A stretch of DNA of 46,909 nt, filler included, from Sphacelaria rigidula (Eukaryota): NCBI GenBank assembly GCA_964200075.2. It is 2 parts of 2 records of this genome, joined end to end, with 100 filler letters (N's around TTAATTAATTAA, not from the genome) between each part and the next. Parts side by side here need not be neighbours in the genome. Positions count along the whole stretch, not along the records: positions 1 to 23,407 come from CAXNAA020000263.1; 1 more part is not named here. One strand, written 5' to 3'. Positions 11,628-39,000 of the stretch are shown here, one piece after another. The notes beneath the pieces are model-generated. The model was not told the origin of the DNA. It saw only the letters and a list, made by a program, of their open reading frames with translations, and did not search any database. Position 1 is the stretch's first letter. Each line of letters begins with the position of its first letter. The position numbers were made by a program, and so were the translations under genes.

Positions 11628-12773
11628 TATATATACATACATCGATTTAGTACAAATGCTTCGAAAAATGGCATAAAATGACGTGGTCATCTGTGAAATG
11701 TGCCGGCCATGATTAAACAGCCTGTGCGCCAGAGAAATCACGTTCGCTGCGTACTTGCTTCGTGTACGAATGTGACGGCAAACATTCTGTGCCTTCGAAC
11801 TCTCGAAGAGTTTGCACCCAGCCTTATTTGGTGGCTGTCGATGAGTGCGTTCTATTATGGCTACGTAGTTAGGTTCCTTCCTTCCGACGAATGGCGGACG
11901 TTCACTATGTTGTTTGTGTCGGAACTGTGCAGAAGTAACGCCTACTCGAGCTGTCTACACATGAATCGAATCCCAACAGGAAGTAATCGTGCAAAGAGGA
12001 TCGTAGCTTTTCTTTCAGATCCTGGATCATGGATTCTAGTTCCCTGCCGTTTTGGCTCGATCGGTAGACTATTCATGGTCAACGCGCCCTGAACACAGAT
12101 TGGAGCCCTTGTCCGATGAAACAATTTGTGCTGTCTACTGTTGTCATCCCATTTCATCCTGCCAACTTACTGTCTGACAAGATGCTGATGATGACCATGT
12201 GTACAAAAGTCATCGATTTCTCCAATTTGCCGATTTGAAATCGACCATTGTACCTTCGCTGGATGTTGTCGGATCGACGAACTAGATATGTCATACTGTT
12301 CCCACGAGTAAGGGCTTTAACCCTTATTCGGGGTGCATTAGCTGTACAGTCCGTCATCCAGGCCAACTCCAGGCCAACTCCAGTAACTAGAGAATGGTCC
12401 AGGACTGCTTCATTTTCTGGTGTCTCCACTCCGAGAGATAGCCGTGAGTTACACACTGCCTCATGGATGTCTCACCCGTTACACACTACGTAGTGTGATA
12501 ATCCCCTTTGCGCGGTGTTGAGGTTCTCCCACCCTGCGAAATATGATGTGGCTCGACCACCATCATGGTTGCCGCAAGAACAAACGGAAGCACAAAAAAC
12601 AACCTGACCTATTTGCGTAGCTTACGCAGTGAGTGATAAGTTTTACACTTTCGATTCCAACCGACGCCAACCCGACTGGATGAGGGGCGAAGTTTGCACA
12701 TAAAATGAGTAGAATCACGAGACGCACACAAAAACGAGGAAATAAATCATTTCTGATTGTCATGATGAAGTCG

Positions 12774-12900
12774 TCACTCCCACCGGATTTGTACAACATC
12801 CGCCGTTTGTTCCGCGATGCGCTGGGACCCCTGCAAACACATGATGGCATAAATGAACCGCAGGGACGAGCCGAACACAGGAAACCTCAACGATGCTAAG
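12774..12900 (-). pseudogene. Possible degraded SWIM zinc-finger fragment (MULE/FAR1-type transposase)
   Basis: The minus strand translates VSC-x9-CHHVFAG and, after a 1-nt frameshift, SQRIAEQTADVVQIRW. This resembles the CxC-x9-CxH...RW layout of MULE SWIM domains, but the first Cys is absent and the frame is closed upstream. Confidence 0.25.
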
Positions 12901-13780
12901 TATTGCTGCGGTGTCGGACCATGGTAATTGGGGGAAAGCTCGTACTGTCTACGTGATTTTCGTGGCACATGTTCTTCGAACTTTCTTGTTCGGGAAAAGT
13001 GCTGTGATTTTGTTTGTTAACGACGTGGTAGGCCTGTGAGATGGGTACCATCGGTGTGAAGGAAAGCCTCACACCGCCGTACCTTTCGCCTTCGCTTTGA
13101 ATGTTGACATTTTTGGACTGGAGCATGATTCCGCAGCAATCAAATTTCACTGTTTACTGCAACATCCATAAGTTGGGAGCGGCTGAGAGTTTTCAGACGG
13201 TGGAAAATGAAGAAAAAAATCATGGTTTCGTTTCAGGCTTTCCAACAAAACTAGGTCGGCGAGCTGGCTGTGAAAGCTTGTTCGTTCTATTTGTCGCGAA
13301 AACGGGCACCTTGTTGTGAAATGTTCGAGCCATTGACCACCCGCCCGGCACGTGTTCGTGTCATTCGAGACTTACACCGCCACATAGATGTATCCAGTGT
13401 CTCATCAGTATCATCCACGCCGTGATGGGCAAATGTGCATCGCATACGAGCTGGGCCAGCCATCAGTGGGTAGTTTTCTCGCTCAGGCGACGCACGGCAT
13501 AATATTAGGAGTTGGACGCTGAAATTCCGACAGCAGCTTCTTATCATTTACATGCGAAACATCCCGAAAGCAGCATAGAAAAGAAGGAAAAACAAAAATA
13601 TATATTGGGATTTGAAATTTCAGCTAAAACAGGATAATGTCGTGAATCCAGGAAAAAACGAGAGTCTGCAGCTGCTCCCGGCAGGTAACATTTCCTTGGG
13701 TGCAAAAGGTCTTCGTGAAATTTCAGTCCAAGACTAGTCGAATTCGGCCGTGCGTGCAACGTTTCGCGTGACGTAGCCCC

Positions 13781-13860
13781 GCCCCTATAATTCAAGTGAT
13801 AAAGGAGACTCCAATCATCGAGATCGTGAGTTCGAATCTCAACATTTTCTCTTTTTTTTC
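13781..13860 (+). repeat. Degenerate tRNA-like (Pol III A/B box) head, probably a SINE relic
   Basis: A-box-like TATAATTCAAGTGAT, B-box GTTCGAATC (13830-13838), then a T-run. No intact cloverleaf. Confidence 0.4.
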
Positions 13861-15578
13861 TCGTCCGTCGTTACGGTTATATAATATGCAGTACGTTTTG
13901 TTTCAGTTTTTCAATTCATTGAGCAATGGCGCCGTGTGTCACCAGGTTTGTCTGCACTTCATGGTGGTATACTTACATCGGGTCCATTCGGGAAACTGGG
14001 AAACCCGTAGTGTGAACAACGTTTTGCCGCTCTCAAGCTGGCCCAGCTGGTAGCGTGTCGGCGAATCCAGCGTTTGTGGGCTCAGAGCGTGGTGCGAGCG
14101 CGGAAATACGGTGTAAAAGTAGGGCAATGAAACACGAATATGCTCCCACCACATCTTGGACGGGTCAATACTCTCCAGTGGTGGTACACTCGAGTCTATA
14201 TTCCCGGTATTCAAAATCATTATGTTCGAGTTTTCACTCGTTAGGCGTGACCCTTGCCATTTTCTCAAATTTTCACCCCTGCCGTTTGACCTCCGTGCGG
14301 ACATGACGGCCGACGGCCATCTCGTAACGTTCGGCCTGGGGCGAACCCCACCTCCAGAAGTGGCGTGTGCGTCGACTTCTCATGTTTGACTGAGCTCGCC
14401 CGATCGTGGGAGGTGTTATTAGCAAAGTGCACGTCGCCGCCCACCTTCAGCACTCAGTACACGGGTTGTCGACTTGACGTGCCTTTTCAAAGCGCGTGTC
14501 GTGCTCATCTCCAGCATATGCCCAGACTAGCGACCACGCGGTGGATATGCACTACCGCTTTTGTGGTTGTCATAAGATCGCCAGGTATCATGTGCCTCTT
14601 CAAAAAGCGACTGTCGAGTTTTATTCGTATGATATACCCGACCATGCATGATTTCGAAAAGTCATTCGCACAGTATACTCCTTTTGGGGGTGCACCAACA
14701 CATGTAACCCGAGTAAATGATTGGATGCCAGACAGGCACTATATATATATATATGTATATATCGACCATGTTTCAAGCCCTAAAGGAGCAATACATGGCC
14801 GGCAGAATACGTCGCGCGTACGTGAGTGCAACAGAGGTTGGGCGTAAACGAGCGCAGTGTATGTATTGCGCGTGTACTATACACATGTGTCGATAGGTAC
14901 AACGCACGTCGACGGCAAATTCGAGTCGTTTGTTGGACACAACACATCGAGACGTATATGAGAGTTGGTATGGGGTGCGTTATCAGGCTCGCCGTCGCTA
15001 TTCGACAACATTTTGCCAGATGCACAATATTTCCCACGTGTTTTCCCGACGTCCTTCGTATATGTATTGTACTATTCCTACATAATATCGATGGCCAGCG
15101 GTTTGCGCCATGGTAGAATGATATAATGATACCCTTTGCATACTCGTAGTTCGTGCTCGCCATACATTGTCGCATCAATATATCATGTTTTCTCTTGGCT
15201 CGATATACTCCATAGATCAACCAGTCCATGTATCGGCCCCTGGCGGGTGAAGTACATATTGGAATATTGCTCGGAGGGCAACCTCAGGTCCAATACATGC
15301 CAACACGAACCCCAACGTACTGCGCGGTCTCGATAATCCCAACCAGGGCATACGTCAAGACCCAAATATGCGCCGTTTACGTTGTAAAGAATTGACATGT
15401 GTCGAAACCTCTCTGTCATTGGCGCGGGAGCACCTGAAGCTGGCAGGATTTCAGGCACAGTCTCAGTCACACCGAACAAAGGCAAGAGCAAGAGTGGTCG
15501 GTGCGATGGTAGGCTTGTAGTACGCATGTCTTCAAGTGGTGGTGTGTGCGCTATTTCTACCATGCTTCTCGTAATTCT

Positions 15579-15697
15579 CCCCCTCCCTCGAGTCCGGCGA
15601 AAACCCGGCGTGCTCCGTCCCGGCTTTGTAGGGATGCGAGGTCAGTGGTGTCATGACTATGGCATGCATGATCATGAGTACACCCCCTCCCTCGAGT
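15579..15697 (+). repeat. Dispersed repeat flanked by C-rich direct repeats
   Basis: Core GTCCGGCGAAAACCCGGCGTGCTCCGT...GACTATGGCATGCATGATCATGAGTACAC is nearly identical to 42897-42988. CCCCCTCCCTCGAGT occurs on both sides (15579-15593, 15683-15697). Confidence 0.8.
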
Positions 15698-17754
15698 TTC
15701 CACCATCAATAGCGAGTGTTTGTGTTACGTTTACCCTGATTGCACCCGTCTTGTGATCACGTCTGAATTCCTTTGCAACCAGTTGGTATGCGACAATTAA
15801 ACAACACGAGGAACCCATATGTTATTTCCATAATAAATCAAATGCCATGGCATGTACGAAATATGACCATGAACAAAACGCCTAGGTGACGAGAACCTAA
15901 GCCTGTCGACCCACTGAGGAAGGTGCTTCCCCTCCATTCACCCCGCGGTCTCGTGTTTGGGGACGGCTTTGGTTTTCTCCTAGAGTGATGTTTTACCCAA
16001 CGACCTGTGACGTGAGATGGTGTAACTCTAACGTGCCACCAGGTGTTGATCTTCTCGTTTGCCGAAAGCACTGTTACTCTGGGGTGTATGTGTCCAATGT
16101 GCCGGTGCTGAATCTACTCGATTTTGTGTGCTCCTGACTAGTGCTATTTTGCTCCAGCACCCCGGTTCCAGTCCATACGAAACGATCCATGTTCACCACG
16201 ACCACATACAGTAGGTTATCCCAGTTGCAAAGTTTTTGGTTTGAGTGGTCGTCACACACACGGGGGCGGTGCATATGGTGTATCCCTCTCCATACGTCGA
16301 GCCATACTCATTCGGGTAATCGGCATCAACTCTCGATGCATAGTACGGAGGACTGTCGAGTAAATGGCGCGGTTAATCATGGCGTCTTCGAAAGTCGTGT
16401 TTTTGTTTAACGTGGATGATGTGACCATGCGTTCGTTACGGACTGTCTAAAGAAATTCATCGAGATTGTCATGTACCGATGTTGAGGCGACCTGATTTTT
16501 TTTTATCTCCAACTGACACGAGATCATGTCTTGAAACCTGGGCTTCACTCACGCCATACCGCGACTTGGCAAAATCTTCACGATATGTGCTTCTCTTGCA
16601 ACGAGTTAACTTGAATACTTGTACTTCTCTACGTTTCGAAGTATCTATATTACGCAATCATCTCGTCTCTCCTCCTGTTTGCATTTAGGCTAAGAGTGCT
16701 TCGGAAGTCCAGCTTTCAGCAAGGTACTGGCGTTTGCTTCTCGCATGAAGGGGCGGAAGTGTTGGTGTTTGCTGCATTTGTTCTCACAGCCAGTTTCCAT
16801 CAGTTGCCTTCCATTCGTTATGGGGTCTTTCTGAGCTATCGCATTTGAGATGAGTCAATATTGAGCACACAATACATTGGATTTCTTATATGCTGTGTCG
16901 GTTTCTCGATTCCTTCATAAAAGGGTCGCAGTCGGTTGTTTTTCTCCGTTTTTGTAGTATAGTTGTCTCTACTTGTTCTTTGTCCGTACTTGTGTGTTGC
17001 ATGCATGTCAACGGGCTGTGCGGAAAATGGCCGTTTGGAATCATCTGTCGCCGAGATAACTGACTGCCTTTTTGAGGCCTGGGGTCCTCGGGCGGTTGTG
17101 TCTATACGCACCACAATCGCGGCAGCATCCACTAATGCAGAATGTTTCATAACGGTACTCATGGCAAGAAGGTTAGAATCCTGAGTCATGAAACTTCACA
17201 CACGCAAGTGGTCGAGGTTGAGTATAGGGGTTTTTGATATTCACATACATGTAGAAAATTTGTCAAGCTTTATGCATAACACGACTGGCGGCAACAAGGG
17301 GCGAGGTTCGAATTTCTTGACGAGGCTCGATATCATCCAAACATTCATCACTTGTTGAAAGCACGTAGTATTTTCTCTTTACCACAGAAACTACCAGCAG
17401 TATTTTATGTTTAGCAAATTGAATGTTTGACAGAGCAAAGGCCTAACTAGTCTCGTCACATAGTGGAGGCCCAAGCAAGATATGAACAGCCCATGCTCAC
17501 CATTTTCCTTGAAAAAAACTGTACGTCGCTTCTGACACTTTTGGCGATGTTCGACCCCGTGTTTGCATCCGTTTGATATCACCAGGCAGCGCCAAGAGGG
17601 ACAACCGGCCCCTCTTGTTCGGCCATCTGACAGAGGAACTTCTAGCAGCAGCCGAAATTGCGTGCGCCGAAATCGCTTGTTATGCTGACGCGGTGGCGAT
17701 GCTAGCTTAGCAGCGCCCCCCCGAGGGCTGCTTGACATTATACATACATATATC

Positions 17755-20592
17755 ATGGCGTGCGTCAACGTCGAGGAGCTTCCGGCGAAGAAGGCAGGGA
17801 TCGTTCATGGGGTGAACAATGAGTGCGGCAACGAGGACTGCTCCAAACGACCATCTGTTGGTGTACCAGGGAGTCGGTCAACAGAGTTCTGTGCCGACCA
17901 CGCCTGGTCGGGGATGATGAATGAAGTGAGCAACACATGCGTCATCGGTGGCTGCTCCAAACGACCATCGTTTGGTGTAGCAGGAAGCCGTAAGGCTGAG
18001 TTCTGTGCCGGCCACGCCGAGCCGTCGATGGTCGATGTTTGGAGTAAGAAGTGTGGCAACGAGGGCTGCTCTGAACAACCATCGTATGGTGTACCGGGGA
18101 GCCGGAAAGCGGAGTTCTGTGTCGACCACGCCGGACCTGGTTTGGTTGATATGAGGAGCAAAAAGTGTAGCAACGAGGGCTGCTCTAGACAACCATCGTT
18201 TGGTGTAGCGGGAAGTCATAAGGCTGAGTTCTGTGCCGGCCACGCCGAGCCGGCGATGGTCGATGTTTGGAGTAAGAAGTGTAGCAACAAGGGCTGCTCT
18301 AGACAGCCATCGTATGGTGTAGCAGGAAGTCGTAAGGCTGAGTTCTGTGCCGGCCACGCCGAGCCGGCGATGGTCGATGTTTGGAGTAAGAAGTGTAGCA
18401 ACGAGGGCTGCTCTAGACAGCCATCGTATGGTGTAGCGGGGAGCCGGAAGGCGGAGTTCTGTGCCGACCACGCCGGACCTGGTTTGGTTGATGTGAGGAG
18501 CAAAAAGTGTAGCAACGAGGGCTGCTCTAGACAGCCATCGTATGGTGTAGCGGGGAGCCGCAAGGCGGAGTTCTGTGCCGGCCACGCCAGGCCTGGTATG
18601 GTCAATATGATCAATGTAGGGAACAGACAGTGTGGCAACGAGGGCTGCTCTAAACAACCATCGTATGGTGTAGCGGGGAGCCGGAAGGCGGAGTGCTGTG
18701 CCGACCACGCCGGACCTGGTTTGGTTGATGTGAGAAGCAAAAAGTGTAGCAACGAGGGCTGCTCCAAACAACCATCGTATGGCGTAGCGGGAAGCCCCAA
18801 GGCGGAGTGCTGTGCTGACCACGCCGGGCCTGGAATGATCGATGTGAGGAACAAAAAGTGTGGCAACGAGGGCTGCTTTAAACGCCCATCGTATGGTGTA
18901 GCGAGAAGCCGGAGAGCAGAGTTCTGTGCTGACCACGCCAGGGCGGGGATGGTCAATTTGTGGAGTAAGAAGTGTGGCAACGAGGGCTGCTTTAAACAGC
19001 CATCGTATGGTGCAGCAGGAGACCGGAAGGCGAAGTTCTGTGCCCACCACGCCGTGTCTGGGATGGTCAATGTAAGGAGCAGGAGATGTGGCAACGAGGG
19101 TTGCTCGAAGAAACCATCGTATGGTGTAGCGGGAAGTCGGTCGGCGAGATTCTGTTGTAACCACGCGAGTGTGGGGATGGTTGATGTGAGGAGCAAAAAG
19201 TGCGGTCACGAGGGCTGCCCCAAACAACCATCGTTCGGTGCAACAGGAAGCCGGAAGGCGGAGTTCTGTGCCGACCACGCCGGGCCTGGTATGGTCGATG
19301 TGAGGAGCAAAAAGTGTGGCCACGAGGGCTGCCCCAAACAACCATCGTTCGGTGTAACAGGAAGCCGGAAGGCGGAGTTCTGTGCCGACCACGCCGGGCC
19401 TGGTATGGTCGATGTAAGGAGCAAAAAGTGTGGTCACGAGGGCTGCCCCAAACGCCCATTGTATGGTGAAGCGGGAAGCCGGAACGCAGAGTCCTGTGCC
19501 GACCACGCCAGGGTGGGGATGGTTCATTTGTGGAGCAAGAAGTGTGGCAACGAGGGCTGCTCCAAACAGCCATCGTATGGTGTAGCGGGAGGCCGGAAGG
19601 CGGAGTTCTGTGCCCACCACGCCGGGTCTGGGATGGTAAATGTTAGGAGCAAGAAGTGTGGCAACGAGGGTTGCTCCAAACAGCGATCGTATGGTGTAGC
19701 GGGAAGCCGGAACAAGGAGTTTTGTGTCGACCACGCCGGTCCTGGAATGATTGATTCAGGGAGCAGAAAGTGTGGCCACGAGGGCTGCTCCAAACGCCAA
19801 TCGTATGGTGAAACGGGGAGCCGGAAGGCGGAGTTCTGTGCCGATCACGCCGGGGCGGGGATGATCGATGCAACGAAGGAGAAGTGTGGCAACGGGGGTT
19901 GCTCCAAACGACCATCGTACGGTGTAGCGGCAGGCCGGAAGGTGGAGTCATGCGACAAGCACGACGAGGCGAGGATGTTCGATAAGTGCGACAACAAGGG
20001 CTACGCGAATCGGTGTGTGTACAGCATTGATGACGTTGAACAGTGGAACGCATGCCAATATGATGCAAATCACACAATGGCCTCCACCTCTAGAGCAACC
20101 AAGCGTGGGCAACAGGGAGGCATTTTCGATCAAGTTTCCACCCAGGACAGACAACCCAATCATTCCACTAGTCACGATGGCGGTGTCGGTGATATCGGGT
20201 TCACCCCTCTTCTACTCGTCGCTTCTGAACTTGTTGTTGGCGCGCCCTCGCAACCCGCCGAGGGTGCCAAAGGAGGACAGGAGGCGAGGCCGCACACAAG
20301 GGTGAAATTGGAGGAGTCTGCCTCCCTTCAGCACCCCAGGCAGAGCTTGCGAATGAGGGTCGGCGTGGTGGCGTACTCTGATGATGGTGAGAACCGCAGG
20401 ATTGGCAGTAACTCCAGCGACAGTTGTGATGGGAGAATGAAGAAACGAATTTGCAAGATACCGTCGATGGTTCGTGAACACATCCCGACAGGAGACACTG
20501 CGATGGATGCTTCTTCAGTGGTACTCGATGGAATAGGGGAAGACGTGAAAATGGAGCTGGCAGTTTTGGCTCCGTTTCACCCCCTCGTGTAA
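17755..20592 (+). CDS. EsV-1-7 domain (cysteine-rich zinc-finger-like repeat) protein, 945 aa
   Basis: Uninterrupted ATG-TAA ORF with 19 complete plus 1 degenerate 38-aa repeats C-x4-C-x16-C-x2-H-x12 (e.g. CGNEGCSKQPSYGVAGSRKAEFCADHAGPGMVDVRSKK). This is the motif of the Ectocarpus virus protein EsV-1-7 and the brown algal IMM family. The low-complexity C-terminal tail carries VKLE/VKME motifs and a basic MKKRICK patch. An upstream exon cannot be excluded. Confidence 0.93.
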   Translation: MACVNVEELPAKKAGIVHGVNNECGNEDCSKRPSVGVPGSRSTEFCADHAWSGMMNEVSNTCVIGGCSKRPSFGVAGSRKAEFCAGHAEPSMVDVWSKKCGNEGCSEQPSYGVPGSRKAEFCVDHAGPGLVDMRSKKCSNEGCSRQPSFGVAGSHKAEFCAGHAEPAMVDVWSKKCSNKGCSRQPSYGVAGSRKAEFCAGHAEPAMVDVWSKKCSNEGCSRQPSYGVAGSRKAEFCADHAGPGLVDVRSKKCSNEGCSRQPSYGVAGSRKAEFCAGHARPGMVNMINVGNRQCGNEGCSKQPSYGVAGSRKAECCADHAGPGLVDVRSKKCSNEGCSKQPSYGVAGSPKAECCADHAGPGMIDVRNKKCGNEGCFKRPSYGVARSRRAEFCADHARAGMVNLWSKKCGNEGCFKQPSYGAAGDRKAKFCAHHAVSGMVNVRSRRCGNEGCSKKPSYGVAGSRSARFCCNHASVGMVDVRSKKCGHEGCPKQPSFGATGSRKAEFCADHAGPGMVDVRSKKCGHEGCPKQPSFGVTGSRKAEFCADHAGPGMVDVRSKKCGHEGCPKRPLYGEAGSRNAESCADHARVGMVHLWSKKCGNEGCSKQPSYGVAGGRKAEFCAHHAGSGMVNVRSKKCGNEGCSKQRSYGVAGSRNKEFCVDHAGPGMIDSGSRKCGHEGCSKRQSYGETGSRKAEFCADHAGAGMIDATKEKCGNGGCSKRPSYGVAAGRKVESCDKHDEARMFDKCDNKGYANRCVYSIDDVEQWNACQYDANHTMASTSRATKRGQQGGIFDQVSTQDRQPNHSTSHDGGVGDIGFTPLLLVASELVVGAPSQPAEGAKGGQEARPHTRVKLEESASLQHPRQSLRMRVGVVAYSDDGENRRIGSNSSDSCDGRMKKRICKIPSMVREHIPTGDTAMDASSVVLDGIGEDVKMELAVLAPFHPLV

Positions 20593-20944
20593 GTGTCAAG
20601 ATGAACGCGAGTTGGCCTTATGATGACGTGCTCGCTGCACGCTGATCTGAGCCCAGCGCCAGTTTACTCTGGAGCGTTTGGTAGAATATTCACATGGCCT
20701 GGTCGTGGTGTCGTGGATGAGAGCGACAGGCACTTATGATCGACATCTGGCGTGAGTGGCAGTAAGATAAAATATTACAAGTAGTTCGACACCGGGTCAG
20801 ACATAGCTTGAACATTGTTTCCTCGACTGGAACGGGCTCTGCCATCCGTTCAAGATCTCTCGTTGCAACTGCCCCGTCCCCCGCTGTCTCTACTCCCTTG
20901 TTGGGGCAACAGTAGTAGCCGATCGTTCTTCATGGGTTTGACTA

Positions 20945-23036
20945 CAATATATTCTCAAAATATAATAGTCGATCATATTGGAATTTTGCGATATAGTGCC
21001 GGCGTAATATATATTTGTACCCTTGGAGTGCTCACGTATTACGCGCCCAATATCTATTGGTACTGTGGGGTCGAACACACATTGTCCCATCAATATATAT
21101 CGGGGCAGCGTGGGCGACAGCATATTGCACGACCAATATATATTAGGGTCGCATTGATGAGAACATATTGACCGGTCAATACGTATTGGATATTATAAGT
21201 ATGGTGTGCGCTTTGAGAAAGATCCAAACGTGATGGATGCCAGAGCCCGTGCAGATTGGGAAAGCTTGAAAGGGAGCCGCAGTAGTTCGCATGCATTACT
21301 ACGGAGAGTTGTAGACTGCGTCTGATATGTATCACACCCTGGACTAAACAATATGTTTCCAATATATATTAGTCGATCATATTGGAATTTTGCGATATAT
21401 TGTCTGTGTAACCTATATTGGTACCCTTAGACTGCACATGTATTGCGCGCCCAATATATATTGATGTCATGGGACTGCATACATATTGCCCGCCCAATAG
21501 ATATTGGTACTATTGGGTTGAACACATGATGTCCCATCAATATATATTGGGGCAGAGTGGGCGACAACATATTGCACGACCAATATATATTAAGGTCGCA
21601 TTGATGAGAACATATTGACCGGTCAATTTATATTGGGTCTGCGTGGGTGACAATGTATTGGCCGGTCAATATATGTAGTAGATATTATAAGTATCGTGTA
21701 CGCTCTAGGAGAGATCAAGACGCAATGGATGCCGGAGCCCGTGCAGATTGGGAAAAGCTTTAAAGGGAGCCGCAGAAGTTCGCGTGCATTACTGCGGAAA
21801 GTTGTCGAATGCGTTCGATATGTATATATATATATTATATATACTGGTTCGAAAATATGGTGACAGAATAGGCGATCCGGTATACATGACTCCTGATACC
21901 TATCTGGTCACCGGTGCGGGGCCGCCCATCCCCTTTCCAGCATGTAATATAAATATCTTGGCTGAACATCACGACGACAGAAAACGCGGGTCGATATGCG
22001 CCTTTTGGTACCCCTGTGGTCACCGGGGCTGTGTTGCTTATACCCTGGACAACATAGTATGTTCCAATATGATACCAATACTTTTTATTGGAGCCAGCGC
22101 AAACATTGTCCTTTCAATATATATTGTGCGTGCCGGCCGTGTATGTATTGAAGTGTCAATATATATTGAGTCGAGGCGATGCGTAGCATATTGTTATCGT
22201 AATATATATTTAACGCAAACCATGCAGAAGTATTGCTTTTCCAATATATATTGCGCAAGCTGATCGGATAGCAATTGTGCAGCCAATATATACTGAACAC
22301 GCTTGCGGAGGAATACATGAAGCATTTTTGGCATATAAAATACGTCTTTGAATGGCACCCGCGAACAAAGAAATGCCCCCACAATACTTACTCCAATACA
22401 CTTCCCAATATATATGTTGAAGATCAATATATTTTGCTACATCAACATGTTTGTGACCAACGGTTCCCTCGTGTATTGTCCGCTCAATATATATTGGCGC
22501 TTCGGGTGTCGAGTATATTGAATCGTCAATATATACTGACCTCGGGTGGCAGCAAATATATTGCCCGATAAATATATATTGGTGCCTTCTCGCACCAACA
22601 TATTACTCGGCCAATATATTGAGGTGGTGCGTGTCGTGACATATTGTTCGGTCGATATATATTGCATGTCGCGAGCCTTGATATATTGATGGCACAAAAT
22701 ATATTGACCCTCTCTCGTGTCATCATATTGCTCGCCCATTATATGTTGACCACCCGATGCCTCGATACATTGAGCGGGCAATACATAATACATATTGTAT
22801 CGTCTAGGGTGTGATATAAATATGGTGACAGAAGAGGCGACCCGATATTAATGCCTCCTGATACCTATCTGGCCACCATTGCGGGGCCGCACATCCCCTT
22901 CTCAGTATGTAATGAATATATCTTGGCCAAACATCACGATGACAGAAAACGCGGGTCGGTATGCGCGCTTCAGTACCCCTGTGGTCACCGGGGCTGTGTT
23001 GCTTATACCCTGGACAATATAATATGTTCCAATATA
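20945..23036. repeat. Composite non-coding repeat-spacer array (42-43-bp period, ~25 units) with block duplications
   Basis: CAATATATATTG-type boxes start at 21005, 21048, 21091, 21134, 21177; 21409, 21452, 21495, 21538, 21581, 21624, 21667; 22115, 22157, 22200, 22242, 22284; 22485, 22527, 22570, 22612, 22653, 22695, 22737, 22779. Each is preceded by ATATTG-like + N6 and followed by a variable spacer. Block 20967-21330 is duplicated at 21370-21825, and block 21853-22070 at 22818-23035. Confidence 0.9.
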
Positions 23037-23047
23037 ACAGCTTGGAT

Positions 23048-23373
23048 TCGTTATTGAGGTTCGACATTTTAATGAGTTTCAACTCGAAAACAATGCTTTC
23101 CCTGACCTAAAGTCATGACCAATGAATTTCACATGAACGACCTCATGCCCTCCGACCTCCTAGGAACTGTTTCGGGGGTTGCCCGTCTTCCGTGCCCCGA
23201 AAACGTATGTTCGAAAGCACCAATATCGGGGCGAAAAAGGGGACGTTTTCAGTCCGAAAAGAAGGTCGGCGGGCATGTGGTCGTCCCTGTGAAATTCATT
23301 GGTCATGACTTCAGGTCAGGGAAAGCACTGTTTTCGAGATGAAACTCATTAAAATGTTGAACCTCAAAAACGA
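23048..23373. mobile_element. MITE-like element with ~113-bp highly similar TIRs
   Basis: TCGTTATTGAGGTTCGACATTTTAATGAGTTTCAACTCGAAAACAATGCTTTCCCTGACCT... pairs with ...AGGTCAGGGAAAGCACTGTTTTCGAGATGAAACTCATTAAAATGTTGAACCTCAAAAACGA. Confidence 0.88.
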
Positions 23374-23407
23374 TCGGGTCTTATATGGTAGCAATACTTA
23401 ACAGCAA

Positions 23408-23507
23408 NNNNNNNNNNNNNNNNNNNNNNNNNNNNNNNNNNNNNNNNNNNNTTAATTAATTAANNNNNNNNNNNNNNNNNNNNNNNNNNNNNNNNNNNNN
23501 NNNNNNN
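23408..23507. other. Artificial scaffolding gap: N44-TTAATTAATTAA-N44
   Basis: Exactly 100 bp with a central six-frame stop linker. This is an assembly construct, so the true distance is unknown. Confidence 0.95.
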
Positions 23508-26967: not shown

Positions 26968-27748
26968 GGGAAAGTGCGATGTAGGTTGGGCCATCGGTGG
27001 CTTGCTTGTTTTCAGGGATGTATCATGAGAGGTTAGGAATATTCTCCCAACTGTGCGGCAATGTGGCATCAATGTCTCGGGGGGGGGGGGAAGGGGGTCG
27101 CCGTTTTTCCTTCTTACATCGCTCGAATATTCTGAGAGAAGGCATATACGAGGTTTTAACAAGAGCAATGTAGACGTTTGTGTGATGCTGCGTTGAGTTA
27201 AAAGCGTGTGGTTTCTTTTTTTTTCATGTATACAAATTTGTATTTCTTAGTTGAGTGAAGGAAAGCTGTCGAGAGGCCACAATTTTTAGTTATATTTCCC
27301 ACTTATTTAGTGTTACAGTGTTGTAACTTTTCTCATACCTGTTGAGTGTGCACGTGCACGGTTCGCTGTGTACTCGAGTTGTGCCAGCAGTTTGGTAAAA
27401 CTTTATGTCCATTTGTGTTGAGTGCCCGTCATGTACGTTGGCAGCTCACAAGCGCAGTGGGATGGATGCGTTGTGGGTCCGTGAGGAGCACGAGACGTGT
27501 TTTTTCAAAACCCGAGGGCGTTTGTCTGTGTCTTATATTTCGTTTGTTGTGTATTTGTGGAAGCAGTCTTCATTGCAAAATATGGCGGACGGTTCTGCTC
27601 AGAGCACACGTGGAGAAGTGCCATCTATTTTGTCGACAGGCGGATTCAGTGTTGTGGTGCCGAAGGGGCAAACGGGTGTTGTGTTCGTGTAGTAAACGAA
27701 GTATGTATGCCACCCCCCCCCCCCCCCCCACGCCCCTCAAAGTGGCTA

Positions 27749-27758
27749 NNNNNNNNNN
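27749..27758. other. Assembly gap (10 N) within poly-C/poly-G tracts
   Basis: N run flanked by homopolymers; the flanking sequence is unreliable. Confidence 0.95.
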
Positions 27759-29040
27759 GGGGGGTTTGGTGTGTGGGGGCGGAGGGGGCAGCGGGTGGTT
27801 GGTTTGGGGGGGAAACGAGGGAGGTGTGCCCCCCCCCCCCCCCCTTGTGACGATTCATTCAGTCGAGCGCGTTATGCATAAATGTTCAGGTGAGAAGGAC
27901 AGACGGAGATGGAATCGAGGATGCCTTCATCTAGAGGTCGGGGTAGCTTTCCCAACAGTATCAGCGTAATCGTTTGCAGTTGGCGTTTGTATGTGCCCCC
28001 TGGTAGCTGGCTTGGAGTACGACGAGAGTGTTTCGTGATTGCACGAAGATAACGGCAAGCATCGTCGTATCTTGATGTCACGAGTTGTCTAAAGCGCGGG
28101 TACATTCAACGTTACGCTTCACCGCTGGATCATGGCAATTCTTGCTCATCTGTACTGATCAGTCACCACCACTGCGCAAATACTCGATTATCCGGGGGCT
28201 GGGATCAATTATCTCGCATAGAAGGGAGGAGGAGGGGCATACACTCATACGCGAAAAGTGGACCATAGTCGTCGTAAATACAGGCCACGACTGAAAAAAA
28301 GTGAAAAGAGAGTTGATCGTGCACAAACGATTTGTAGTGCCATGTGGTCGTGGACGTCCTGTTTATGTTTACTACACAGTCTTCTGTTCTCGTTGACAGC
28401 TTGCTACTGTGGCTTCAAGTTTGTTCTTGGGGGGTGCCCTGCCAGTGTACGGATTAAAAAGTTGTGTTGGACAGGAAAATGGGGTGGCACAATGTGCGTG
28501 CCGTCTGCAATTTCGTCTTCCCCCCGCGTTCCGTCCCGCGGTGATACCGTCTCGACCCCCTCATTCCCGGGAGGCCGAGATGGCGAAGAATCAAGTGAGA
28601 TGAAAACTGGGGTGGCCAAACTACGGGAAAGGTCGTCGCTTGATGAATCCCATCATGGAATGATCGATAGAGGGTAACGTGGGCTGGCTCTCCAAGGGTT
28701 GGAAATCTTTGCTCCTCGAAAAAATGGGACCAAAATTATCATCAGTATGGGAGGTGGTCGACTCTTTTCGTGCCAGATGGGACCCGACTGTGCGGATAGA
28801 CGGGGCAGGCTATTAGGGTATGTTGACATGCTGAGCTGAGTGTACGCGTACATTGTACGGGTGTTGAAACTTGAGATGGAATAGTCATCTTAACGTGGTC
28901 ATGTGCTTACTGCGTATCTGTGACGCGGCTCTAGGTGTTCAGTGAGTGGGGCGTGTATTGCTTATATTATGTTATTAATGTGCGAGACGTGAGACAAGAC
29001 TTTTGAGGGGATGCAACACGAAATAATTTGTGCATGTGTG

Positions 29041-37035: not shown

Positions 37036-37981
37036 TTATAAAGAAAGCGGAATTGAGTAGTAGGTAAGTTGGCACTCATCAGGTGTCGCCCGCAAATCCA
37101 TTGCGATCGAAACATTTACTCCACCACTGTCTGCGCAGACTTTGTGTGTTGCAGCTGTCTCTACTGTTGCTGGTACAGTTCGCTGGCTCCGCCTGCTACT
37201 CAAGTCTCCTCCGAGACGCCAAGCTCGGTATTGATCCCATCCCACCTTTCCCCGAACGTTAACTGTACTCCACTGTTGTGCCGTGTCATGCCCTACTGTT
37301 GTGAATGTTTTTTGCCGCGTTTTCCGCAGAGAGCCAGTCGGCAGGACGGGTGTAGGAGTGTAGCATATACCCCACCGTGGTTGGCCAAGCGGTGGAGATC
37401 TTTTGAAAGGGCCGCTATAAGAAGAGGACCGCGACGAAGCGGAGAGTTAACCGAGAGAGGCAAGGGCTTCGACCTAGTCATCCGGTGGGAACAAAGCGAA
37501 GGAACAACTGAGGTTCAATACAGCCTCAGAAAAGTGTTTCCGCAGGGGAGGTCCTTCTGGTCGACTCAGTGAAGGCGTGATTGGCTGTGCTGGTGTGGGA
37601 CAAAGCGGAGAGAGACACTGAGGAAAAGTTCGTGACGGAAGCCCGGACCGAGAAACACCAAAGGCTTTGCTGTAACCCACTGCTCGACACACATCAGTTC
37701 GAACCGCCGACCTCGTCGCAAGGGTACGGCTCGAGAAGAGCGTGGGCTTCATCACAAGCAACGCGATTGCTCGGCGAGACTCGTTGAACATTAGGAAGGA
37801 GGCGTTTTGCTTTGCTTCCGGGCTTTCAAGCGGTGCAGACGCGACGGCGCGCGGGGCGTGTCATCATCTAATCCGCCCTGCTAGGACGGCTGTCACGACC
37901 GTGGGACACAGCATTTAAATCGACCACACATACTCACACACACCTGCAGAGTTTCATATACTATACATCTTGCAGGAAAAT

Positions 37982-38247
37982 ATGGCAGCAAGTACACCCT
38001 TCTACGAATTGTCTTTCACTGTGGAGGCCAACACGGGGCACGGAGAAGTCATTTACGTTTGCGGGTCCTGTCCGTCGTTGGGGTCGAAAGACCCCTCCAG
38101 GGCGCTGAGGTTGGTCACAGACCCTTCCAGCTACCCACTGTGGAGCTCAGAGCCGATTCCCGTGCCTTTGGGGCAACGGGTCACCTATCGATATTGCATC
38201 GTGGCCGGTGGAAAATTGAAGCGATGGGAAGAAATTTCCGCTGACAG
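37982..38247 (+). CDS. TPS: CBM20 carbohydrate-binding domain, first coding exon of a probable trehalose-6-phosphate synthase/phosphatase
   Basis: LSFTVEANTGHGEVIYVCGSCPSLGSKDPSRALRLVTDPSSYPLWS...VTYRYCIV...RWE fits the CBM20 pattern (F-x-V...GE...G...LG...YPxW...YrY...WE). Donor AG|GTGGGT, phase 2. Confidence 0.85.
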
Positions 38248-39000
38248 GTGGGTCGAGAGCAGTTGGAATAGGGTGGTAATCCTCTTGTGGAGGAGGAGGG
38301 CGGGGGTTGCGTTGTGTGGCCATGCGTAGGTGCTCTGGATATCGTGAAACTGATAACGGGGTACGATTCGAGAGAACTATGGTCGTGATACCGATGGCTG
38401 TGCCGTCGCGATGCAGGAGGAAATTTTAGGCCTATGCATCGGAGTATGTGCTGTTGGACTCGGCCGGGTACGACACATGTTCTGTCGTAAATTTTGAAAA
38501 ATCGACTTGCACTACAACTTGGCGCTGCCAGTGCTTATTCATGTATCATGTTCGTGAGAGACAGTCCAGCATGGGGGTACTGTCGTGTACCCACGGAGCG
38601 CAACCAAGTTTTATGTCGGCAGTTTGTCACAGCGGGCGTACAAGTGGAGATAATTGAGGAGTGAGATATAGGATACACACAAGACACGTTAAGGCCCAAA
38701 GGAAAAATGATGAGTCTAGGTTTACGACTAAGTCACGGACGACGGTTTTGTGGTAACACGCGCCTTGCCTGCGCCCAGCCCATCAGGGGTAAGACCGGTG
38801 TGAACGCAAATGGCAAACGGTGGTCACCTGGGTAATAATAGTTGTCTTCACACATACTGAACATAGTTGTGGTACACTGTATTTGATGACGAGTAGGGGG
38901 CGGAACAACTGCACGTCTCTCCCAAGGCGTTTACGTGTGCAGGTTGACGCGACTTGTTCACCACGTTCTATGGTTGACACCTGTTCATATTTGTTCGAGA

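Follow-up and report, generated by a model that had tools for sequence, protein, structure and literature searches.

A nineteen-repeat EsV-1-7 protein gene of Sphacelaria rigidula and the possible nature of its repeat array

The gene described here belongs to the known EsV-1-7 family, to which it adds a new and very large member; its product (P0001) carries 19 tandem repeats of the form C-x4-C-x16-C-x2-H, every ligand residue being intact, and the array is under purifying selection. The array is viewed, with about equal belief and doubt, as a DNA-binding surface that is multivalent and enzymatically inactive, composed of zinc modules and followed by a regulatory C-terminal motif. The family is among the largest brown-algal gene expansions and includes a developmental regulator; 19 intact modules make an extreme, clean and convenient object for the study of metal and nucleic-acid binding, and taken singly the gene is an ordinary member of the family.

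Results and Discussion

Gene and transcript

The window (the whole stretch of DNA that was analysed, 46,909 nt, filler included) contains the following parts of the gene:
15345..15481, plus strand: upstream untranslated exon, from an X5 contig; 5′ end not defined
15482..17585, plus strand: 5′-UTR intron, GC..AG, 2104 nt, from one spliced X5 contig
17586..21145, plus strand: large second exon with the entire ORF, from contigs of X1, X3 and X5
17682..17705, plus strand: short upstream ORF in the 5′ UTR, 7 codons and stop, by reading of the sequence
17755..20592, plus strand: ORF P0001, 945 aa, stop codon counted in, frame uninterrupted

Position 17755 is the first in-frame ATG past the stop codon at 17686–17688, since the stop-to-stop frame begins at 17689. 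Contigs of X1, X3 and X5 lie on the gene and are absent from its flanks, and these RNA-like contigs come from two studies; X8 gives even, DNA-like coverage everywhere. Depth at 15810–17333: zero in X1, X3 and X5; about 33–42 in X8. One X5 contig (record 17, 434 nt) joins 15345–15479 to 17584–17855, skipping 2104 nt; the joint slides by ≤5 nt and, when moved by +2, shows the donor AG/GCAAGA, and the intron boundaries read GCAAGA...CACCAG/G (slash, boundary). The X1 and X3 contigs also break at 17584, like the X5 joint. Contigs of the second exon: 17584–17851 (X1, X3) at the 5′ side; 19901–20999 (X1), 19901–21145 (X3) and 20465–21143 (X5) at the 3′ side, from which the exon may, tentatively, end near 21143–21145. 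Within the array the contigs are short (138–259 nt); joints found there (skips of 325, 579, 931 and 1120 nt, 20–24-letter sides) were discounted, being probably artefacts of assembly across the repeats. By the coverage pattern and the one spliced contig, the kinds of the runs X1, X3 and X5 being guessed, the gene, which is intact, is probably transcribed.

No Pfam family was found in 9 of the 10 other ORFs of the window, and no viral gene was recognised adjoining the 19-repeat gene within it. Under the preferred reading the gene would lie in the nuclear genome of a brown-alga-like host and be maintained by selection.

Architecture of the array

17824..19998, plus strand: 19-repeat EsV-1-7 array, from Cys1 of the first repeat through position 38 of the last
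18610..18630, plus strand: linker after repeat 7, longer by 3 residues (41-aa unit)

Nineteen repeats had been read in the earlier note, and the same number was returned by the regular expression for C-x4-C-x16-C-x2-H (19/19, one frame, residues 24–748), with 23 residues only ahead of the first repeat and no additional copy when the window was read in all six frames. Successive repeats are spaced by 38 aa in 17 intervals and by 41 aa in one (after repeat 7); TRF: 17822–19948, period 114 nt, 18.6 copies, 80% matches; Pfam PF19114: 19 stretches, E 2.9e-267, 862.5 bits vs gathering cut-off 25. The earlier assignment to the EsV-1-7 family thus agrees with Pfam and, as far as the accessible text of the sources goes, with the literature. 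None of the 76 ligand residues has been lost, although the repeats diverge by about 20% in DNA. The protein had been called basic, which holds for the whole chain (pI 8.88) and for the array (9.05) and fails for the acidic tail (pI 5.97).

Pfam stretches reach a maximum of 15 among the ten repeat-richest (picked by regular expression) of the other 311 proteins, and P0001 is the longest EsV-1-7 repeat protein among those compared. The commonest period among the relatives, 38 aa, equals its own, and the named relatives are all brown-algal. In the accessible part of the source, orthologues of IMM are defined by a unique N-terminal domain before five repeats (10.1101/2024.02.19.579948). P0001, with 23 leading residues and 19 repeats, falls outside this definition; since only 23 residues precede repeat 1, the IMM-defining domain is absent, as judged by this criterion.

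Variation among the repeats, duplication and selection

Columns C1, C6, G13, C23 and H26 alone are invariant and 33 of the 38 vary, so that the picture of a nearly constant scaffold dotted with a few variable sites does not apply. The residue variants noted earlier are all present (nine triplets after Cys2, Y/F at position 12, the pairs before His, the linkers). The pre-His pair of repeat 19, DK, is to be added to that list, as are the variable columns 28, 29, 36 and 37. The claim that variation recurs at fixed positions did not survive counting: non-synonymous changes on the repeat tree, over 34 non-ligand columns, have a mean of 4.0 and an index of dispersion of 1.14 (p 0.27), and cannot be told apart from a single uniform rate. 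Variability is highest in columns 34, 35 and 28, followed by 25, 29, 36 and 37, tied at six changes each; compared site by site across the repeats, no column rises above the neutral rate (lowest p 0.18, column 34), such per-column counts within one array having little statistical power.

The tree carries 77.5 synonymous vs 136.5 non-synonymous changes; array-wide dN/dS 0.49; departure from neutrality: chi-square 25.8, p 3.8e-7. The array is under purifying selection. The rate of change is close to neutral in columns 28, 29, 34 and 35, most others being constrained. Variability within the protein follows that across the family (rho 0.54). Column 34 is V, I or L in 96% of the family; given this conservation, its variation here is mostly conservative V/M/L (15 of the 19 repeats), together with divergent end repeats.

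DNA identity reaches 96% in R13/R14, R4/R5 and R6/R8; bootstrap: R13+R14 100, R2+R4+R5 98, R11+R16 95. Recent duplications, some of a single repeat and some of a short block, have enlarged the array, and the repeats that share variants are recent duplicates of one another.

These data bear on the main proposal of the earlier note, a programmable code in which each repeat would read one nucleic-acid unit through a few specificity residues, in the manner of TALE, PPR or C2H2 arrays, and could be rewritten by shuffling. Modular growth by repeat duplication, the four near-neutral columns among constrained ones and the correlation with family-wide variability all speak for it; they are set against a single replacement rate, the lack of any column over the neutral expectation or of a hypervariable set, a column 34 that is conserved in the family and changes here mostly conservatively, shared variants that track recent duplicates, and a predicted module that is not a helical solenoid (see below). 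A per-repeat recognition code is unsupported and, as an explanation of the array, highly unlikely; its internal variation alone shows no sign of a code, and the differences between repeats look like ordinary duplication and drift.

At the other extreme, the array might be a runaway repeat expansion without maintained function, the gene being young and drifting within a family that expands rapidly. The closest relative among 1.84 billion representatives is 48% identical and no close orthologue was found; the tail is unconserved except in its last residues; and, in the accessible text of the sources, the family (2018 proteins over 31 brown algal genomes) appears young-like and peripheral in co-expression networks. 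Drift of this kind is scarcely credible, however, in view of the departure from neutrality, the 76 intact ligand residues at the repeat divergence given above, an unbroken frame of 945 codons and transcript-like coverage that includes a spliced 5′ UTR.

Predicted fold of the repeats

A confident model of four repeats (pLDDT 88.2; pTM 0.50, a low value of the kind expected when modules are loosely oriented to one another) gave for each repeat two 3-residue strands and one 3-residue helix, the same throughout. The repeat is thus predicted as a small beta/zinc-knuckle unit and not as a helical solenoid. Foldseek search of the model: nothing at E 0.001 or better, best row E 2.9, rows at E 4–6 including PHD and LIM. 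VIA-align against 48,161 chains: 3 chains with Z ≥2, best 2.5, second look best 2.3; the best rows are RING domains (Z 2.0–2.5) and the zinc-binding domain of nsp13. On these scores, which are at noise level, the model matches no solved fold, and none that binds DNA. In sequence searches of solved structures the four-repeat profile gave 0 matches and the single-repeat profile plastocyanin only (E 0.6); the idea of metal buffering or of a copper site, from the plastocyanin-like C-x2-H-x4-M, was dropped for want of support.

In the preferred reading of a multivalent DNA-binding surface, each 38-residue repeat would form a small independent module around one metal ion, most likely zinc, held by Cys1, Cys6, Cys23 and His26, and the 19 modules would be strung along short basic linkers. 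The earlier note knew of no ligand demonstrated for the EsV-1-7 domain; the literature, as far as its text is accessible, agrees, and for no member of the family does it give direct evidence that metal or DNA is bound.

The same modules could instead form a protein–protein scaffold that recruits partners in the manner of LIM, RING or B-box domains, with no nucleic-acid contact. Such structural neighbours as the model has are all protein-binding zinc domains (RING, PHD, LIM), although at noise-level scores; the short linear motif conserved in the tail is of a type to which partners or modifiers typically bind; and the Ectocarpus members have, in the accessible text, no other Pfam domain. Such a scaffold leaves unexplained both the recurrent nuclease fusion described below and the conserved basic positions of the repeat (the commonest residue is K or R at family positions 8, 18, 19, 27, 37 and 38), and it is considered unlikely.

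Nuclease fusions in relatives and DNA as ligand

A like array stands ahead of a C-terminal nuclease-like domain in 139 of 311 relatives, none of the 139 bearing the name of a brown alga; a repeat-profile scan of viral contigs gave 5 loci only, encoding two distinct proteins. The fused domain has invariant PD...ExDExxH residues. The closest structural match of its model (pLDDT 87.3, pTM 0.79) is I-Bth0305I (3r3p_A; Z 9.5, rmsd 3.3, 95 residues aligned), followed by 3hrl (Z 8.7), BpuSI (Z 8.1) and Vsr (Z 8.0), and the domain is accordingly predicted to have a Vsr/EDxHD-type nuclease fold. With the viral C-terminal domain as query, Pfam returned no family at E up to 1 and phmmer against PDB only ribosomal protein L6 (E 0.11).

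Fusion of the array to such a domain favours DNA as the ligand, as do the basic pI of the array, the K or R positions of the family and the ligand spacing shared with the Zn1 site of the DNA-binding SBP domain. The nucleic-acid reader of the earlier note is thereby supported indirectly, and DNA binding by the 19-repeat array is, by analogy, plausible. P0001 has no nuclease domain: it is not among the 139 phmmer matches and its tail has no Pfam family. The argument from fusion is therefore borrowed from mostly metagenomic relatives of 27–40% identity. P0001 would then be a regulator or a chromatin-associated protein located in the nucleus, and not a nuclease, its affinity arising from many weak basic modules.

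An array preceding a nuclease is also an architecture in need of a targeting part, a point in favour of the programmable code. Along this line a bolder version may be framed: the EsV-1-7 repeat would be a DNA-reading module with a separable preference per repeat, giant viruses would aim Vsr-type nucleases with arrays of it, and nuclease-less arrays, the 19-repeat one included, would have been retained in brown algae as sequence-specific regulators. We see only a slim chance of this; if true, the targets of brown-algal arrays would change upon duplication or loss of repeats.

RNA is often the ligand of Cys3His fingers in other families, and the Cys3His ligand set of the repeat, in a basic array, would suit an RNA-binding protein acting post-transcriptionally. 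The classic RNA-binding CCCH fingers have, however, a spacing other than C-x4-C-x16-C-x2-H, and the common fusion partner is a DNA endonuclease fold; RNA as the ligand is distinctly unlikely. It is to DNA that the nuclease fusions direct attention.

C-terminal tail

19999..20589, plus strand: acidic C-terminal tail of 197 aa (pI 5.97), not of any known family
20302..20313, plus strand: VKLE, aa 850–853, psi-K-x-E
20440..20448, plus strand: KKR basic patch, aa 896–898
20542..20589, plus strand: C-terminal motif DVKMELAVLAPFHPLV, conserved in nuclease-less relatives

Up to E 10 the tail matched nothing in Pfam, and blastp against 185 relatives gave no similarity below E 1.6; conservation is confined to the last residues. 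The psi-K-x-E motifs and the basic patch noted earlier are in place: VKLE (aa 850), VKME (aa 931) and KKR (aa 896). Two psi-K-x-E motifs occur in the tail vs 0.21 expected (p 0.016). The pattern [VIL]K[AVTLMI]E[VCLIA] is found in the last 25 aa of 21/173 nuclease-less family proteins and 0/139 nuclease-bearing ones; the C-terminus of P0182 reads NVKLEVAPSHSSPPLV. The conserved psi-K-x-E of the nuclease-less branch is a candidate site of modification or partner binding. In P0001 it may be a regulatory or partner-binding site; VKLE and VKME agree with the SUMO consensus, and SUMO attachment is one possibility.

Comparison with known systems

Giant-virus and metagenomic array nucleases: their arrays are homologous to that of P0001, with 27–40% identity and equal period. 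The nuclease domain is present in them; P0001 has none, and its tail, unrelated to theirs, closes with the psi-K-x-E motif.

Plant SBP domain (PF03110): the ligand spacing of the Zn1 site, CX4CX16CX2H in the accessible text of the source, is identical to that of the EsV-1-7 repeat. SBP profile positions 1–33 align with the repeat in register, weakly (14.5 bits vs cut-off 27). Of 69 family members, 8 match SBP at E up to 1, likewise in register, the lowest E being 0.028. The Zn2 site C-x2-C-x3-H-x11-C is absent from P0001, which has no C-x2-C anywhere. SBP has one Zn1/Zn2 pair, whereas in EsV-1-7 the unit stands in tandem; the likeness consists of spacing and weak hits, from which homology does not follow.

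WRKY19 zinc finger (PF24906, 24-position profile): matches in 16 of 69 short family members, best E 3.9e-7; P0156 passes the cut-off (30.2 vs 27 bits). P0001 gave no match at E up to 0.01 as the whole protein, nor at E up to 10 as a four-repeat piece. Among the literature matches listed, none ties EsV-1-7 to SBP or WRKY19; a search for the CX4CX16CX2H spacing found SBP and not EsV-1-7.

TALE, PPR and C2H2 arrays: these, like P0001, consist of tandem 30–40-residue modules, the number of which is altered by duplication. Unlike in them, no two or three hypervariable positions stand out in P0001 as carriers of specificity; TALE and PPR form helical solenoids, whereas the repeats of P0001 have no helical repeat fold in the model. 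The C2H2 pattern C-x2-4-C-x12-H-x3-5-H has no match in P0001.

EsV-1-7 family (PF19114 / IPR043822; Ectocarpus IMM, EsV-1 gene 7): the members, as far as the accessible text on those of Ectocarpus goes, have no Pfam domain besides, and likewise the 19-repeat protein. The number of repeats differs, 19 in P0001 vs five in IMM by the same sources; the motif C-x4-C-x16-C-x2-H is common to all.

Open reading frame and repeat array

P0001, a protein of 945 residues, is coded by the longest open frame in the 46.9-kb window by far:

17755-20592, + strand: open reading frame of P0001, one long open frame
17822-19948: tandem array (Tandem Repeats Finder: period 114 nt, 18.6 copies, 80% matches; one array reported)

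Regular-expression search gave 19 copies of C-x4-C-x16-C-x2-H, the first at residue 24, spaced by 38 residues, with a single 41-residue unit following repeat 7; no further copy was found elsewhere in the window when six frames were scanned. The only Pfam family matched by P0001 was PF19114 (EsV-1-7 cysteine-rich motif), with 19 matches (E 2.9e-267). The earlier note had described this ligand pattern as invariant in 19 repeats (19 of 19 by regex) and had listed residue variants, all of which were found; the regex, Pfam and variant checks agree with it, and its factual part is therefore correct. Its description of the protein as basic holds for the whole chain (pI 8.88) and the array (9.05), and fails for the 197-residue tail, which is acidic (5.97).

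Family background

Among 1.84 billion representatives the family numbers 6288 at E ≤0.001 and 970 at E ≤1e-30; the closest relative of P0001 is only 48% identical; named relatives are from Ectocarpus, Scytosiphon, Sphacelaria, Ascophyllum, Laminaria, Pylaiella, Discosporangium and Choristocarpus. Within 312 collected family proteins, which are the best matches to a P0001-based query and no census of the family, the strict motif occurs 19 times in P0001 and 11 times in the runner-up; the ten richest candidates hold at most 15 Pfam stretches, against 19. P0001 is a new, exceptionally long member of the known EsV-1-7 family. In the excerpt cited, this family (2018 proteins, 31 genomes, IMM included) is presented as a possible new zinc finger class (10.1101/2024.02.19.579948); passages of a second source give the Ectocarpus members as lacking any other Pfam domain, tending to stage-specific expression and lying peripherally in the co-expression network (10.64898/2026.04.27.720984). 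What the IMM protein does is given as unknown in the passages cited (PMC7457493; PMC12993054).

Duplication history and variation between repeats

DNA identity of repeats (R1-R19): 96% for R13/R14, R4/R5 and R6/R8; 93-96% for R3/R6/R8; 89% for R11/R16; 86% for R10/R15. Clade support on the repeat tree: R13+R14, 100; R2+R4+R5, 98; R11+R16, 95. Divergence is greatest in repeats 1 and 19, at the two ends of the array. Arrays that grow through duplication of inner units usually look this way, and much of the variation common to several repeats is common ancestry.

Synonymous and non-synonymous changes were counted by parsimony for each codon column on a maximum-likelihood tree built from the DNA of the 19 repeats. 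Totals were 77.5 synonymous and 136.5 non-synonymous changes, dN/dS 0.49; departure from neutrality, chi-square 25.8, p 3.8e-7; pairwise Nei-Gojobori values agree (pN/pS 0.46, dN/dS 0.36). The gene is intact and under purifying selection.

The earlier note had proposed that variation recurs at fixed positions, as in a code of the TALE, PPR or zinc-finger kind. This was not borne out: only C1, C6, G13, C23 and H26 are invariant (Cys1 = position 1), 33 of the 38 columns vary, and a single rate fits the 34 non-ligand columns (mean 4.0 replacements, dispersion index 1.14, p 0.27). No column of the 38 exceeds the replacements predicted from the synonymous rate, the highest ratios being 1.43 at column 34 (p 0.18, the lowest), 1.21 at 28, 1.13 at 35 and 0.96 at 29. 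The positions that had been named (7-9, 12, 24-25, 34-35) do not form the most variable group; columns 28, 29, 36 and 37 vary equally or more. The counts do not hint at a few hypervariable positions set in a constant scaffold, although 19 short and related sequences limit the power of the test. A coded reader of nucleic acid gains nothing from this pattern, and we consider it improbable.

A family profile was built on 222 distinct in-register repeats from relatives. Conserved: G5, P10, F/Y12, G/N13, G16, F/Y22, K/A27, G30, M31 (96%), V/I32, N/D33, V34; variable: 2-4, 7, 9, 11, 14, 15, 17, 21, 24, 25, 28, 29, 35, 36. Per-column variability in P0001 correlates with that in the family (rho 0.54; 0.37 with ligand columns removed), so the softer positions of P0001 are those at which the domain is generally unconstrained.

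Gene structure, expression and surroundings

Sampled words of the gene region were present at 71-85% in eight public sequencing runs from two studies; contigs of four of the eight (X1, X3, X5, X8) were mapped on 12000-23400. Depth in X8 was DNA-like (all 30 bins covered, ~23-42 in unique parts); X1, X3 and X5 showed zero depth at 14286-15047 and 15810-17333 and coverage from 17584 to ~21145. A single contig of X5 connects 15345-15479 with 17584-17855, and contigs of X1 and X3 break at 17584.

15482-17585: putative GC-AG intron, AG/GCAAGA ... CACCAG/G (X5 joint slid by 2 nt, 5 allowed)

The simplest reading, with run kinds judged from the coverage pattern, is a two-exon transcript with the entire ORF in exon 2; the gene is probably transcribed. 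The contigs that cover the array are short; for a 3' end near 21145 there is no more than a weak hint. A spliced 5' UTR favours a nuclear gene of the host over a dormant viral insert; no viral genes were recognised near it in the window. The only other Pfam match in the window is a CBM_20 starch-binding domain (37919-38329, + strand, E 4.9e-15), encoded in an open stretch that is probably one exon of a nearby host gene.

An upstream ORF of 7 codons (17682-17705, + strand) lies in the 5' UTR, 50 nt ahead of the main ATG. An element of ~96-104 nt (15592-15687) stands between two exact 15-nt direct repeats CCCCCTCCCTCGAGT (15579-15697); its summed contig depth is 1.4e6 in X8 and ~1e5 in X1, X3 and X5, contigs end loosely at 15591/15592 and 15687/15688, and the flanks are many and varied. 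The element resembles a small mobile or dispersed repeat of very high copy number; Rfam gave no match in the entire window, this element included. Summed X8 depth at 20763-23400 is 8,600-45,000 against ~30-40 in unique flanks, which marks the DNA downstream of the gene as repetitive genomic sequence. The window contains 108 N letters in total, e.g. near 23452-23463 and ~27.7 kb; an assembly gap lies inside a proline/glycine-rich open stretch (27346-27969).

C-terminal tail

The tail matched no Pfam family and, by blastp, showed no similarity to relatives. A psi-K-x-E motif occurs in the last 25 residues of 28 of 186 family proteins (two control stretches, 4 and 2; 500 shuffles, mean 4.9, maximum 11). 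The form [VIL]K[AVTLMI]E[VCLIA] is C-terminal in 21 of the 173 proteins that lack the nuclease domain and in none of the 139 that carry it; outside the C-terminus of the nuclease-less set it occurs in just 11 proteins over 74,597 residues. C-terminal ends: NVKLEVAPSHSSPPLV (P0182, a Sphacelaria relative) and DVKMELAVLAPFHPLV (P0001). The SUMO-type motif noticed earlier in the tail is therefore conserved at the C-terminus in the algal-type branch, and is a candidate SUMO site.

Predicted structure of the repeat

The structure of four repeats (window 18730-19215) was predicted from an alignment that also included three other four-repeat P0001 pieces and 65 short relatives; pLDDT 88.2, pTM 0.50, values that fit well-defined modules with a variable orientation to one another. 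Each modelled repeat has a strand Y12-G13-V14, a bridge at F22, a three-residue helix at positions 24-26 that ends on the His ligand, and a strand M31-V32-D33. No solved fold was clearly like the model (Foldseek, best E 2.9; VIA-align against 48,161 chains, best Z 2.5 for a RING domain, 2.3 on a second look); scores this weak demonstrate neither a new fold nor kinship of the predicted module with RING.

Nuclease fusions and proposed mechanism

Five viral loci represent two distinct proteins, with five Pfam-matched EsV-1-7 repeats (strict motif in four) followed by a 174-residue C-terminal domain. This domain was found by phmmer in 139 of 311 other family proteins, 131 of them with E-x-D-[EG]-x-x-H; no brown-alga names are among the 139, and P0001 is absent from the matches. 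R66, P67, D68, E81, D83, E84 and H87 are invariant in a 42-sequence alignment. Domain model: pLDDT 87.3, pTM 0.79; Foldseek, nearly all restriction-endonuclease-fold nucleases, best E 1.6e-3; VIA-align, I-Bth0305I (3r3p_A) Z 9.5, rmsd 3.3, 95/97 residues, then 3hrl Z 8.7, BpuSI 8.1 and Vsr (1vsr) 8.0. I-Bth0305I is described, in the excerpt cited, as a homing endonuclease whose catalytic domain is Vsr-like and whose DNA-binding parts are separate (PMC3239194).

In the viral array nucleases (L001 2842-4074, L004 2629-3864) an extra C-x2-C...C-x2-C segment and a basic stretch precede the first EsV-1-7 repeat, and a degenerate finger (CKTPMCD...) closes the array ahead of the nuclease domain.

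The array ahead of the nuclease-type domain is most simply read as its DNA-targeting part. The fusion in distant relatives supports DNA binding and says nothing on a code; a protein scaffold instead of a nucleic-acid binder, or an RNA-binding array, is considered less likely. In the most likely mechanism, to which we give about even confidence, zinc-stabilised modules in a chain would form the P0001 array, which would act as a multivalent DNA binder with no catalytic domain.

Comparison with known metal-binding domains

18118-18144: example of plastocyanin-like segment, repeat positions 23-31

The plastocyanin copper-binding loop YCAPHAGAGMV (C-x2-H-x4-M) resembles F-C-A-D-H-A-G-P-G-M-V of P0001 (E 0.6, not significant), probably by coincidence together with the core methionine (Met31, 96% conserved family-wide). 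The WRKY19 zinc finger model is matched by 16 of 69 family members, one above its cut-off. SBP matches at E up to 1 were given by 8 of the 69; the P0001 piece matched weakly (E 0.046). SBP is a DNA-binding domain with a second zinc site, whereas P0001 is without that site and scores far under threshold, which makes this a resemblance and not membership. In this resemblance the first 33 positions align in register, and the ligand spacing of the EsV-1-7 repeat is exactly that of SBP Zn1, given in the excerpt cited as CX4CX16CX2H (10.1101/2021.08.22.457055).
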